Shown here: positions 21,001 through 27,000 of the stretch, in pieces
How the letters are laid out: each line of letters opens with the position of its first letter
How positions within the stretch are numbered: position 1 is the stretch's first letter
Virus record (IMG/VR): IMGVR_UViG_2880412407_000003
Span: 1-47,880 of that record
Strand: one strand, 5' to 3'
DNA length: 47,880 bases
DNA from: a virus
Taxonomy: Duplodnaviria > Heunggongvirae > Uroviricota > Caudoviricetes
Made by a program: the position numbers

Positions 21001-24000
21001 AAAACTGCTCCCGTATATCCCGAATAACGCGGGGATCCTGCTGGTACCATGCTGTCGTGGTGGTTCGGCATTTACCCAGGGCGCGGAGGGGACATTCAGT
21101 GCGGACACGGGGGCCAGCCAGGATTCGGCGCGCTGGGGTGTGGGTAAACCGTTATATCAGGACCTGATTGCGCGCACCAAAGCTGCATTACAGAAGAACC
21201 CGAAAAATGTGTTGCTGGCGGTGTGCTGGATGCAGGGAGAGTTTGACATGAGCGCCGCCACCCACGCACAGCAACCTGCGCTGTTTACAGCCATGCTGAC
21301 ACAGTTTCGTGCTGACCTCTCCGTGTTTAACGCGCAGTGCCATGGTGGCAGTGCTGCAGATGTGCCGTGGATTTGTGGTGACACGACGTATTACTGGAAA
21401 AATACATACGCTACCCAGTACGACACCGTGTACGGCGGGTATAAAAACAGGGAGAGTGAGGGCGTTTATTTTGTGCCCTTCATGACAGACGGTAACGGCG
21501 TCAATACCGCCACTAACGCGCCGGCAGAAGATCCGGATATTCCGGCATCAGGATATTACGGTGCGGCATCGAGAACGAATGGAAACCAGGTATCATCAAA
21601 CCGCCCGACACATTTCAGTTCATGGGCGCGCAGGAGCATTATTCCGGATCGTCTGGCAACCGCTATTCTGAACGCAGCCGGGCGCACCTCAGCCTTCATC
21701 AGTGGTAAGGCACCGGAAATCAAACCCTCGCCCGGCGGCAACACGCCATCGGGTCCGTCTGCAGATACGTCCGTTCGCACAATCTCCCTGCTGCCGGCAG
21801 CCGGAGAGGCTGCTGCGCAGGGCTGGAGCATTAAGGATGGCGGAATTCAGTTGTCAGATGGTGTATTTAAGATCACCAAGCAGAGCAATAAAACCTGGTC
21901 CCTGACGCATCCGGTGGATGACGCAATTACCCTGCTGACACAGGGCGGCAGACTGACCTGTAAGTTCCGCCTGTCAGGCGCACTGACCAACAATCAGTTC
22001 GGGCTGGGGATTTATCTGTATACGGATGCTCCCGTTCCTGATGGTGTGGCGATGACGGGTACCGGTAATCCGTTCCTGATGTCGTACTTCACTCAGACCA
22101 CTGACGGCAGAGTGAATCTGATGCATCACAGGAAAGCCGGAAACACGAAGCTGGGGGAGTTCGGCGATTACGGTAACGACTGGCAGACGCTGGAGCTGGT
22201 GTTCACCGCCGGCAGTGCCACGGTTACTCCGAAACTGAATGGAGTGGCTGGCCCGGCATTCCAGGTTATAAAAGACAGTCTGACACTGGGACTGAATGCG
22301 CTGACGCTGACGGATGTTACAAAAAATGCAGCGTATGGCGTTGAGATAGAAAGTCTGGTGCTGGAGATAAATGCACCGGCAGCATAATAAAAAAAGAGCC
22401 AGCGACTGACCTGAAAGAAGACGCTGGCTAAAAGGCCTTATATGTTTGTAGAGACTTATTTTTCACAGACAGCAATGATGCCTGTCAATATATTATCAAT
22501 ATGCGGATTGTTTCAGTTACAGATGCTTTATTAAGGAAAAAAACAGCCAGCACTGACTTTCGGTGGAGAGGTGCTGGCTCAGAAGGATAGTTGGATTTCA
22601 CATGATACTTATGCCTGGCGGTATATTTTCTGACAGACAGTGACGGGTGTTGTCAAGATATTGTGTCATTTATAACCTGAATCAGGGGAGGCCGGAATGT
22701 TATCTGGCATTTTTAGCAGAGCCTGAATGCCATAATCACGGCTCCCGGAGTTGGCCGTCAGTGGGTGACACTGGCGGCTTTTTGTTTTCCTTTACTTTCA
22801 TTTTCTGTCGGCGGTGACGGAGACATACATCAGATGGAAAAAATCACAACAGGTGTGTCATACACCACGTCAGCGGTAGGGACGGGATACTGGTTACTGC
22901 AACTGCTGGACAAAGTCTCTCCGTCCCAGTGGGTGGCAATAGGTGTGCTGGGAAGTCTGCTGTTTGGCCTGCTGACGTATCTGACTAACCTTTATTTCAA
23001 GATTAAAGAAGATAAGCGTAAGGTGGCGCGGGGAGAGTAGTCTGAACCGCCCCGGTTTTCCTGGAGAGTGTTTTATCTGTGAACTCAGGCTGCCAGATCA
23101 TCGTTTCTGATGGAAGCATAATAAGCTTTTTCTGCTTCTGCCGGAGGGATATGACCCAGCCTTCCCAGCAATCGTCGATTGTTATACCAGTCCACCCACG
23201 TGAGTGTGGCCAGTTCCACTTCTGCACGGTTTTTCCAGCTCTTACGGTGTATTACCTCCGCTTTGTAAAGACCATTGATGCTCTCCGCCATCGCGTTGTC
23301 ATACGAGTCACCTGTACTCCCTGTTGATGCCAGCAGTTTTGCTTCTTTTAGTCGCTCCGTATAGGCCAGTGATACATACTGAGAACCTTTATCACTGTGA
23401 TGGACTGTGCCGGACGGCCGACGGGCCCACAACGCCTGCTCCAGTGCATCCAGCACGAATGTCGTTTCCATAGACGATGAGACTCGCCACCCCACGATAC
23501 ATCCGGCAAACACATCAATGATGAACGCCACATAGACGAAGCCCTGCCATGTGCTGACGTAAGTAAAATCAGCCACCCACAGCTGGTCAGGACGTTCTGC
23601 CACGAACTGACGGTTTACGCGGTCGCCTGCGGAAACGGCTTTCCGGCTGACGGTAGTACGGACCTTTTTACCCCGGAGAACACCGGCAAGTCCCATAACC
23701 GCCATGAGGCGCGCCACTGTACATCTGGCCACCCTGATACCTTCGCGTAACAACTGGCGCCAGACTTTACGCACACCGTACACCTGATGATTTTCATCGT
23801 ATACGCGCTGTATCTCTCTCTTCAGCCAGTCATCGCGCTGAGCACGGGCACTGCGTTTATCAGGATGATGTCGCTGTTGCTGACAGTGGTAATACGTTGA
23901 CGGGGCAATATGCAGCTCACTGCATACCGGTCCGACCCCGTACTGCTCACGCAGCTTATCCAGCAGTGGCATTATTTTTTCCAGAGGCGGTCGAACTCCG

Positions 24001-27000
24001 CCTTCGCAAAATAAGCGGAAGCCTGGCGAAGGATATCGTTACTGCGGCGCAGTTCACGATTTTCACGTTCCAGCTCTTTCAGACGCTGACGTTCAGCGGT
24101 GGTGAGTCCACCATCACCGCCCCCGGTATCCCGCTCATGCTGACGAACCCACACACGCAGAGTCTCTGGTGTACAGCCAATCTTTGGGGCAATGGAACAA
24201 ATTGCCGCCCATTGTGAGTCATATTCGCCCTGACTTTCCAGAACCATACGAACTGCCCGTTGACGGACCTCAGGGGAAAAACGTGTATTTTTAGTCATCC
24301 TGTTTACCTCTTTCTCAGGGAGTTTAGTCTCCAGGATTCCCGGGGCGGTTCAGTCGATGAATAAACAATACGAACTGGTTGTAAAATGAATATTTCTAAC
24401 TGAAAAAACGTTCCATGAGGTAAGAAAAGGTCACAGGCAATCAATAACAGGACGTGATGAAAGACCCTTGCATTTGTGCGCTTTGAACCGCCCCGGGTTT
24501 CCTGGAGAGTGTTTTATCTGTGAACTCAGGCTGCCAGATCATTGTTTCCGATGGAAGCATAATAAGCTTTTTCTGCTTCTGCCGGAGGAGTATGGCCCAG
24601 CCTTCCCAGCAATCGTCGATTGTTATACCAGTCCACCCACGTTAGTGTGGCCAGTTCCACTTCTGCACGGTTTTTCCAGCGCTTACGGTGTATTACCTCC
24701 GCTTTGTAAAGGCCATTGATGCTCTCCGCCATCGCGTTGTCATACGAGTCACCAGTACTCCCTGTTGATGCCAGTAAGCCGGCTTCCTTAAGCCGCTGCG
24801 TGTAGGCCAGCGATACATACTGAGAACCTTTATCACTGTGGTGGATTGTGCCGGACGGCCGACGGGCCCACAACGCCTGCTCCAGTGCATCCAGCACGAA
24901 TGCCGTTTCCATGGATGATGAGACCCGCCATCCCACGATGTATCCGGCGAACACATCAATGATGAACGCCACATAAACGAAGCCCTGCCATGTGCTTACC
25001 CAGGTAAAATCAGCCACCCACAACTGGTCTGGACGTTCTGCCACGAACTGACGGTTTACGCGGTCGCCTGCGGCAACGGCTTTCCGGCTGACGGTAGTGC
25101 GGACCTTTTTACCCCGGAGAACACCGGTAAGTCCCATAACTGCCATGAGACGTGCCACAGTGCATCTGGCCACTCTGATACCTTCCCGTAACAACTGACG
25201 CCAGACTTTACGCACACCGTATACCTGGTGATTTTCATCGTATACGCGCTGTATCTCTCTCTTCAGCCAGTCATCGTGCTGCGCACGGGCACTGCGTTTA
25301 TCCGGATGATGTCGCTGTTGCTGACAATGGTAATACGTTGACGGGGCAATATGCAGTTCGCTGCATACCGGTCCGACCCCGTACTGCTCACGCAGCTTAT
25401 CCAGCAGTGGCATCATTTTTTCCAGAGGCGGTCGAACTCCGCCTTCGCAAAATAAGCGGAAGCCTGGCGAAGGATATCGTTACTGCGGCGCAGTTCACGA
25501 TTTTCACGTTCCAGCTCTTTCAGACGCTGACGTTCAGCGCTGGTGAGCCCACCATCACCGCCCCCGGTATCCCGCTCATGCTGGCGAACCCAGACACGCA
25601 GAGTCTCCGGCGTACAGCCAATCTTTGGGGCAATGGAACAAATTGCCGCCCACTGTGAGTCATATTCATCCTGACTTTCCAGAACCATACGAATCGCCCG
25701 CTGACGGACTTCGGGGGAAAAACGAGTATTTTTAGTCATCCTGTTTACCTCTTTCTCAGGGAGTTTAGTCTCCAGGATTTCCGGGGCGGTTCACTTTCTC
25801 TTTAGATAGCAGCAGATACTGAAAATCTGAGTTGTCGGGGAGTCAGGGATACAGCTGTACAAGAGTTGGTCATTGTGATTCCATTGAAATCCTGTATGCC
25901 ATGAAGGGCAGGATTTTATGGCTACCTGAGCTTTGGTGATAGTAAGTTGAAAATTCGCATTTTTTGCTGACATGCGTAACGAGAATCCCATAAGCAGGGA
26001 GGACTTAATTCTTCATTAACCCATGCGTTGATATTATGTTTCAGCCGTTGAAGCATCAGCGGTGTTAATGTTGTGGTAATAATATCCAGCGTTTTATGTG
26101 AGATCTTACCGTAAGGGTCTGCAAGAATGCTGCTTGTTGCTTCGTTATTATCTGCCATCAGAAGAAGTAACTCTGATTTAACGTTTTCTGTCATTAGTTG
26201 TAAAAATCTTCTGCGCAAACTTTCTTTACTGTTCATTTATATGGCTTCATTTGTTGTAATCTGCTGCGTCTCAAGGGATATGTTTATGAGAGCGACCATG
26301 AGTGTTGGATTATATACCTAACATATCAAGGGATTAGAAATCGATAAATCCCCATGAACGAAAAAATAAAATACGGCCTGTCGGCTGCCGTTCTGGCGCT
26401 GATTGGTGCAGGTGCTTCTGCGCCTGAAATCCTCGACCAGTTTCTGGATGAAAAGGAAGGTAACCACACCACGGCATACCGTGATGGTGCGGGGATCTGG
26501 ACCATCTGCCGTGGTGCCATTCTGGTGGATGGTAAGCCTGTTATTCCTGGCATGAAGCTGTCAAAGGAAAAATGCGACCGGGTTAATGCCATCGAACGTG
26601 ACAAGGCGCTGGCATGGGTGGAGAAAAACATCAAAGTGCCGCTGACCGAACCCCAGAAAGCGGGGATCGCGTCATTCTGTCCGTATAACATTGGCCCCGG
26701 TAAGTGTTTCCCGTCGACGTTTTATAAACGAATTAATGCAGGTGATCGAAAAGGTGCCTGCGAAGCGATTCGCTGGTGGATTAAGGACGGTGGCAGAGAC
26801 TGCCGTATCCGCTCAAATAATTGCTACGGTCAGGTATCCCGGCGAGATCAGGAAAGTGCGCTGGCGTGCTGGGGTATCGACAGATAAGCAGAATATTTTG
26901 CTTAAAAATGACGTTGGCCAACGCGGGCAGATAACACGAAATCCTGCGAACTGGCAAAACCCAAGTGAATAAAAGTAAAAACCCCGTTTGTTGGTTGCAA

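Follow-up and report, generated by a model that had tools for sequence, protein, structure and literature searches.

Two separate IS629-family insertions lengthen a native holin-endolysin spacer in a lambdoid prophage of Escherichia coli

Introduction

The closest described lysis cassettes are the S21/R21 system of phage 21, essD-rrrD of DLP12 and S-ydfR-R of Qin and H-19B, which share the PF04971 holin family with the locus studied here and, like it, have Rz and Rz1 downstream. The endolysins R21 and RrrD are also homologous to the endolysin at this locus, N-terminal segment included. In other relatives S and R either abut or are separated by a ydfR spacer, which in Stx phages is about 400 bp long, whereas the cassette type described here has a different, AT-rich spacer of 687 bp.

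The insertion sequences found in this spacer resemble the IS629/IS1203/IS3411 group of EHEC and Shigella, with which they share a length of 1310 bp, TG...CA ends, 25-bp repeats, an orfA/orfB arrangement with -1 frameshifting, an ALIL pseudoknot and 3-bp target duplications. Published IS629 sub-types lie 55-60 nt or more apart, and 62% of IS629 copies are inside prophages (PMC3271280). O121:H19 strains carry many copies of IS600 and IS629, whose excision, with adjacent deletions, is promoted by IEE, and ISCfr6 is an IS3-family member listed for this serotype (PMC9397093). In the Stx2 prophage VT2-Sakai (Sp5), an IS629 lies antisense within the late operon, upstream of S and R; this phage lyses, packages at at least 1e10 per ml and transfers (PMC2669165).

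Here we analyse a 47,880-nt stretch of a Caudoviricetes record (IMGVR_UViG_2880412407_000003), hereafter the window, in which an earlier note had described two IS629 insertions splitting the lysis cassette. The window holds a lambdoid prophage that carries TccP2 and belongs to a STEC O121:H19-type E. coli genome.

Results

Lysis genes on either side of the insertions

The lysis genes are as follows.

22834-23040, plus strand: S, intact class II holin of 68 aa, of pinholin type (S family of phage 21)
26354-26887, plus strand: R, lysozyme-type endolysin of 177 aa with an N-terminal SAR-like segment, intact
27323-27781, plus strand: Rz spanin, intact (Pfam PF03245, E=9e-40)
27534-27740, plus strand: Rz1 lipoprotein, embedded in Rz (frame +1 translation)

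S is a small protein that matches Pfam PF04971 (E=1.9e-32) over profile positions 1-63 of 64, as expected of the P21 holin S family; its hydrophobic peak spans residues 32-50, and PGAP names the identical protein WP_000411804.1 'class II holin'. The dual-start motif of S21 (71/68) was not found: the 15 codons that precede the ATG at 22834 contain no in-frame Met. Because Stx-phage relatives are arranged alike, the missing dual start is not evidence against holin function.

R matches Pfam PF00959 (E=3e-24), and its residues 9-174 match the phage 21 lysozyme (3hde) and RrrD (4zpu), SAR-like segment included. A catalytic triad motif, E35-x8-D-x5-T, begins at residue 35 (EGNHTTAYRDGAGIWT), and residues 7-24 (YGLSAAVLALIGAGASAP) form a Gly/Ala-rich SAR-like segment with G/A/S/T at 11 of 18 positions. 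Triad and N-terminal segment together suggest that R is a SAR-type endolysin, and the earlier identification of an S21-type holin and a SAR-type endolysin flanking the insertions is upheld. There is no obvious Shine-Dalgarno sequence for R, and a hairpin lies immediately before its ATG.

Two complete elements of different sub-type

The interval between S and R is built from two insertion sequences and from native spacer.

23043-24352, minus strand: IS629-family element, copy 1, 1310 bp
23085-23972, minus strand: orfB of copy 1
23972-24298, minus strand: orfA of copy 1
23901-24017: ALIL pseudoknot of copy 1
23043-23067 and 24328-24352: terminal repeats of copy 1
23040-23042 and 24353-24355: GTC target duplication of copy 1
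24353-24483: spacer piece between the elements, 131 bp, starting GTC and ending CTT
24484-25793, minus strand: IS629-family element, copy 2, of a different sub-type, 1310 bp
24526-25416, minus strand: orfB of copy 2
25413-25739, minus strand: orfA of copy 2
25342-25458: ALIL pseudoknot of copy 2
24481-24483 and 25794-25796: CTT target duplication of copy 2
25794-26353: rest of the native AT-rich spacer, 560 bp
25922-26236, minus strand: orphan gene, 104 aa, phrog_1853, intact, 128 nt from copy 2

Both copies start with TGAACC and end with GGTTCA, their terminal inverted repeats being 25-26 bp long and 88-92% complementary, so that length and TG...CA ends agree with the IS3 family (about 1.2-1.5 kb). 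OrfA is 108 aa with an HTH_Tnp_1 domain in both, OrfB, of 295 or 296 aa, has HTH_21 and rve domains, and the ALIL pseudoknot (RF01497) is intact in each at 120-121 bits; PGAP annotates a programmed frameshift on identical copies of these elements. The 3-bp target duplication of the IS3 family is present at both (GTC/GTC and CTT/CTT), the G of the left GTC being the final base of the holin TAG stop, and none of the lysis genes is interrupted by either element. Chance is not an issue, because each is a structured 1.3-kb repeat with exact target duplications.

Two complete IS629-type elements therefore lie on the minus strand within 23043-25793, 131 bp apart, and their target triplets do differ as the earlier note had read them, in place of the identical triplets that would indicate one event. 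Its description of "several point differences" falls well short: an alignment of the two shows 75 differences over 1310 positions, 56 of them transitions and 19 transversions, for an identity of 94.3%, which is just under the level usual for isoforms of one IS. Measured against the IS629 of VT2-Sakai, as labelled by its depositors, the differences number 57 for copy 1 (95.6%) and 48 for copy 2 (96.3%); neither is of the O157/VT2-Sakai form. Copies 1 and 2 are two IS629 sub-types, and depositors label both IS629 (AP024472.1; AP019709.1; JLK-2012). ISCfr6 was considered as a name for either copy, and no link could be made, the source papers containing no sequence data.

The spacer is older than the insertions

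From holin stop to endolysin ATG the window measures 3313 nt (23041-26353), in agreement with the earlier estimate of about 3.3 kb. In IS-free cassettes the same distance is 687 bp, AT-rich and with an antisense orphan gene, and this S-spacer-R arrangement occurs without an IS in 618 E. coli genomes. The IS-free cassette of E2865 differs by only 3 nt from the window once the ISs are taken out. IS-free cassettes have one GTC and one CTT at the two sites, and in them the 131-bp piece is contiguous with the sequence from 25797 onward. GC content is 37-39% in those parts of the interval that are not IS, and 50-53% in the S and R genes.

The minus-strand ORF at 25922-26236 is present as previously noted. 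PGAP calls a 90-aa form of it (WP_000138558.1), and diverged homologues, all unnamed E. coli proteins, keep the full 104 aa. The protein has no Pfam match, phrog_1853 being its sole family match, and its AlphaFold model is confident (pLDDT 86.5, five helices), but neither PDB nor BFVD gave a match to the fold (best E about 1-2).

The claim that the insertions split S from R thus survives in part. They raised the distance from 687 to 3313 nt, but spacer and antisense ORF are native, and the comparison with IS-free cassettes that the earlier note had called for reveals both the single-copy sites of insertion and a gap that predates them. Because the 687-bp spacer exists without any IS, the elements lengthened an existing gap and broke no tight S-R unit. 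In this cassette type, then, S and R were at no time adjacent or translationally coupled.

Distribution and order of the insertions

NZ_CP027454.1, a nearest complete genome, is 100% identical to window positions 22400-24484 plus 25794-27900; it has copy 1 only, with one CTT, and is also missing one IS600. Likewise, several complete genomes of O121:H19 type match the window at 100% identity apart from copy 2, whose site is exactly empty. The holin/copy-1 junction is present in seven further O121 genomes, and copy 1 was found in every O121 genome examined. Among complete genomes both sites are occupied only in 2015C-3107 (NZ_CP027317.1), where the first element is more complex (a chimera plus a 102-bp remnant) and a third insertion event lies within copy 1; the exact two-IS arrangement of the window is not replicated in the complete-genome set (RefSeq). 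Sisters 100% identical to copy 1 occur elsewhere in O121:H19 genomes, and sisters 100% identical to copy 2 are located both on chromosomes and on plasmids of O121:H19. IEE-driven dynamics of IS3-family elements in O121:H19 would fit with copy 2 being present in some genomes and absent from others, and with the rearranged 2015C-3107 locus; the iee gene does not lie within the window.

Transcription signals and prophage decay

Plus-strand terminator-like hairpins within the ISs are weak, with stems of 5-6 bp (23321-23336, 24493-24505, 25215-25230), and no strong plus-strand terminator was found within either element. A new promoter for R was also sought: a consensus scan of the plus strand over 23041-26353 was negative, and no outward promoter was found at the IS ends.

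Beyond the lysis genes the prophage carries further insertions.

28105-29366, minus strand: IS600, just downstream of the lysis genes
about 30.4-31.7 kb: second IS600

The two IS600 mark a region without terminase and head genes. The prophage also carries an IS66, its portal gene is truncated and terminase is absent; by its gene content it is evidently defective for particle formation, regardless of the IS629 insertions.

Discussion

We favour, with a probability of about 85%, an explanation in which two IS629 elements inserted independently into a native spacer, copy 1 first, with small effect, during the decay of the prophage. Both would have transposed by the copy-out/paste-in route, with a DDE transposase made by -1 frameshifting, into the existing 687-bp spacer of an already defective lambdoid prophage. 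Copy 1 probably came first, inserting two bases past the holin stop and duplicating GTC, and copy 2, of the other sub-type and presumably drawn from the resident IS pool, would have followed 131 bp away, duplicating CTT, in what appears to be a sublineage only. That the insertions were separate and not a duplication, as the earlier note proposed, is borne out by the 75 differences, the unlike triplets, the identical sisters that each copy has elsewhere in O121:H19 genomes and, most directly, the genomes with copy 1 and a single CTT.

A single event, either tandem duplication of one element with its flank or the arrival of a composite IS-131 bp-IS transposon, is by comparison extremely improbable. 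The two copies are indeed direct repeats with 131 bp between them, but their divergence, the absence of a shared duplication at the outer flanks (GTC and CTT) and the existence of a copy-1-only intermediate at 100% identity all count against it, as does the 131 bp itself, which is native spacer; a composite transposon can be ruled out, since there is no shared outer duplication and the cargo is native to the site. A different question is why this locus was hit. It is possible, though we think it doubtful, that the site just after the S stop is a hot spot for the IS629 family, and that lysis modules are hit or retained since disarming lysis benefits the host, a form of domestication. In O145:NM FWSEC0002 an IS occupies exactly the insertion point of copy 1, oriented alike and again flanked by a GTC duplication. 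This IS belongs to another sub-type, with 63 differences from copy 1 but 2 from the O145:H28 IS, and the cassette allele that holds it departs from the IS-free O157 allele by 3 nt and from the O121 allele by 32 nt. Other cassettes have been hit as well: EC4115 has an IS629-type insertion in S, O111 08-4377 an insertion in the spacer gene with a deletion, O145:H28, O157 Z1835 and O80:H26 insertions at three different positions in R, and 2015C-3107 its third event inside copy 1. However, cassettes were sampled by similarity to the window, which biases towards such cases and the same orientation, no target consensus is evident among five sites, IS629 is generally enriched in prophages (PMC3271280), and the O145:NM case could go back to a shared insertion of some age, with recombination or gene conversion afterwards. 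The related insertions found are all antisense to the late operon, the only orientation that the junction queries could recover. We offer only tentatively the narrower proposal that the GTC hot spot is orientation-specific and that different sub-types reached it in separate events in O121:H19 and O145:NM, the lysis modules of EHEC lambdoid prophages being preferred or retained as targets since weakened lysis domesticates prophages with effector genes such as tccP2.

The earlier note also supposed that the insertions uncouple the expression of S and R. Late transcripts would then end, or be degraded, inside the two antisense ISs, about 2.6 kb in all, leaving holin without endolysin and spanin, and lysis by the prophage lost or delayed. 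The increased S-R distance, the weak hairpin/T-run sites on the plus strand of the ISs and possible convergent transcription from IS promoters and the spacer gene would favour such an effect, and the sequence before the R start codon suggests that R expression may be fragile. We nevertheless consider functional uncoupling unlikely: this cassette type never had S and R side by side, no strong terminator was found in the ISs, and Sp5 still lyses and makes phage although an antisense IS629 precedes its lysis genes. The Q-modified polymerase of lambdoid phages reads through terminators, which also counts against uncoupling. Were Q antitermination weak or absent, polarity could arise over the 3.3 kb or so of untranslated, antisense sequence.

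Under the favoured explanation, Q-driven late transcription would read through both antisense elements, and the effect on R and Rz expression would therefore be small. Any effect on lysis would matter little for phage production, because packaging and head genes are already lost. The insertions are probably best regarded as steps, neutral or mildly favourable, by which the prophage decays, and the finding of two ISs is ordinary prophage decay, already known in kind.

What the locus offers is mostly bookkeeping, in that it puts on view the stepwise decay of a TccP2-carrying prophage in O121:H19. It also supplies two IS presence/absence markers, of which copy 2, together with the neighbouring IS600, marks a sublineage and could aid strain typing, and it corrects a likely misreading, as the S-R gap of this cassette type is native and not made by ISs. 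Should the same-site hit in O145:NM stem from a genuine hot spot, work on IS629 site choice would gain a handy natural target in the S-R junction, a modest advance.

The nearest precedent is VT2-Sakai, where an IS629 likewise lies antisense in a Q-dependent late unit, upstream of lysis genes, none of which is interrupted. There, a single element lies in nanS-p, upstream of S as well as R, and the phage is fully functional, whereas in the window the prophage is defective and its two elements lie between the two genes.

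Results

We found two IS elements between the holin gene S and the SAR-type endolysin gene R, in an interval that also holds an antisense gene:

22834-23040: S, 68 aa, phage 21 holin family (PF04971, E=1.9e-32)
23043-24352, minus strand: IS copy 1, 1310 bp, GTC on both flanks
24484-25793, minus strand: IS copy 2, 1310 bp, CTT on both flanks
25922-26236, minus strand: orphan spacer gene, 104 aa, phrog_1853 match
26354-26887: R, lysozyme-type endolysin with an E-x8-D-x5-T motif and a Gly/Ala-rich N-terminal segment

A repeat finder resolved a direct repeat at 1441-bp spacing and four inverted-repeat pairs into the two elements, each starting with TGAACC and finishing with GGTTCA. 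Both encode orfA (108 aa, HTH_Tnp_1) and orfB (295/296 aa, HTH_21 and rve) on the minus strand, and in both the ALIL frameshift pseudoknot is intact (Rfam RF01497, 120-121 bits). They fall within the IS3 family, in its IS629/IS1203 group. The repeat finder and flank sequence agree with the earlier note on coordinates, strand, triplets (GTC, CTT) and 131-bp spacing, but its "several point differences" between the copies are in fact 75 of 1310 positions (94.3% identity). Transitions account for 56 of these; in the ORFs, 50 codon changes are synonymous and 16 non-synonymous.

Copy 1 differs from the depositor-annotated IS629 of the Stx2 prophage VT2-Sakai (Sp5) at 57 positions, and copy 2 at 48; published IS629 sub-types are 55-60 nt or more apart (PMC3271280). 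Depositors label both types IS629 (AP024472.1, AP019709.1, JLK-2012). O121:H19 chromosomes carry sisters of copy 1 at other sites with 100% identity, and O26 plasmids carry sisters at 99.8%. Those of copy 2, the rarer type (just 30 records at >=99%), occur at 100% identity on O121:H19 chromosomes and virulence plasmids.

The proposal that the two insertions were independent is proven by a genome with copy 1 only and by an IS-free cassette. Strain 2014C-4423 (complete genome NZ_CP027454.1) matches 22400-24484 and 25794-27900 at 100% identity, and carries copy 1 and a lone CTT at the copy 2 site. Across the whole window, it differs only in lacking copy 2 and the IS600 at 28105-29366 and in 30 point differences. 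Once both elements and a single copy each of GTC and CTT are taken out, 1428 bp remain from S to R, 3 nt of which are different in strain E2865, whose cassette has no IS and contains each triplet once. These comparisons exclude duplication of one IS and a composite-transposon origin.

The holin/copy-1 junction is present in eight O121 complete genomes, only one of which, 2015C-3107, also has copy 2. The copy-1-only genome and the single triplets of the IS-free cassette place copy 1, found in all O121 genomes examined, as the earlier insertion and copy 2 as a later, sublineage event. In 2015C-3107 itself the first-site IS (NZ_CP027317.1, locus coordinates 3644-5054) is a clean chimera, being of copy-1 type to window-equivalent 24098 and copy-2 type from 24099 on, with a 1-nt deletion; after it come 102 bp left over from the left end of copy 1. 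The best explanation is either a third event, in which one IS entered another and recombination ensued, or an assembly error.

The AT-rich segment between S and R is not a product of the insertions. Of 5426 E. coli genomes, 618 have the cassette without an IS, and there S and R are already separated by the 687-bp spacer, of 37-39% GC, in which the antisense gene is also present. Among seven cassettes, the spacer (23041-23042, 24356-24483 and 25797-26353) has 4 variable sites in 687 bp, far fewer than S (14 in 207 bp) or R (20 in 534 bp). The 104-aa ORF is probably a real gene, and its full frame is kept in homologues at 64-79% identity. AlphaFold gave a confident five-helix model, for which we found no fold match; the protein matched no Pfam family. 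Database matches are confined to E. coli prophages and include a 53%-identical homologue, orf6, which Stx2 phage 86 carries in its early region; the gene is thus not bound to lysis cassettes but a mobile module. Copy 2 lies 128 nt past its stop codon and leaves it untouched.

Alignment of R to the phage 21 lysozyme (3hde) and RrrD (4zpu) begins at residue 9, and Rz and Rz1, the downstream spanin genes, are intact. A hairpin, GGGATT(11 nt)AATCCC, lies in 26330-26356 and ends one base ahead of the R ATG, before which no obvious Shine-Dalgarno sequence was seen. It is native to the cassette, as no variable site falls there among IS-free relatives. The R-Rz gap holds a strong bidirectional terminator-like hairpin (26978-27010; stem of 13-14 bp, with T-runs on each strand); thus, terminator-bearing modules interrupt the lysis cassette even without ISs.

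By itself, the prophage cannot form particles. The stretch from Rz to a truncated portal gene lacks terminase and head genes, and their expected place is flanked by two IS600 elements:

28105-29366: first IS600, opposite in orientation to the second, absent in NZ_CP027454.1, present in 2015C-3107
about 30440-31700: second IS600, opposite in orientation to the first

The early region carries an IS66-family element, and gpK is frameshifted in the near-identical NZ_CP027454.1. Additionally, we observed three tRNA genes (19116-19362) and, at 20138-20389, just upstream of nanS-p, Rfam matches to the sRNAs STnc100 (plus strand, 148 bits) and AgvB, an anti-GcvB sRNA (minus strand, 96 bits). By NZ_CP027454.1 annotation, the right end (47128-47880, minus strand) encodes an EspF-repeat (TccP2-type) effector and an EspV fragment, and the integration site adjoins potC.

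Discussion

The earlier note held that the insertions probably uncouple S from R. Polarity is conceivable across 3.3 kb of untranslated RNA, but the 687-bp gap predates the insertions, and the ISs contain no strong plus-strand terminators, only 5-6 bp hairpins. Given the native spacer, S and R of this cassette type were never translationally coupled; they are co-expressed solely as members of a long Q-dependent late transcript. By analogy, VT2-Sakai also argues against uncoupling: its nanS-p gene, which precedes S, R and every morphogenesis gene, contains an antisense IS629, and the phage nevertheless shows culture lysis, at least 1e10 packaged genomes per ml and transfer to K-12 (PMC2669165). 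We therefore consider functional uncoupling unlikely and the claim weakly supported. As the prophage cannot make particles alone, the question has limited biological weight.

Spacers differ among related systems: Stx phages such as H-19B have one of ~400 bp with a ydfR-type gene, and in other prophages S and R abut. EHEC lysis modules have been struck repeatedly by IS629-type elements (coordinates are those of each comparison locus):

O145:NM FWSEC0002 (NZ_CP031919.1), 1254-2563: same nucleotide, GTC duplication and orientation as copy 1
O157:H7 EC4115, 1254-2563: inside S, TAC duplication
O111:NM 08-4377, 3002-4311: inside the spacer gene, all deleted up to tccP2
O145:H28, 2671-3980; O157:H7 Z1835, 2645-3954; O80:H26, 2749-4058: three different positions inside R

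The FWSEC0002 element is the O145-resident sub-type, with 63 differences from copy 1, in a different cassette allele, which the IS-free O157 allele matches to within 3 nt. Such recurrence may reflect a hot spot or selection for disarmed lysis, a reading we consider less likely than not, as sampling of lysis-module cases was biased and the general bias of IS629 to prophages (62% of sites; PMC3271280) is well known. The two-IS feature is a routine case, of a kind already known, of prophage decay driven by ISs in a STEC lineage rich in them.
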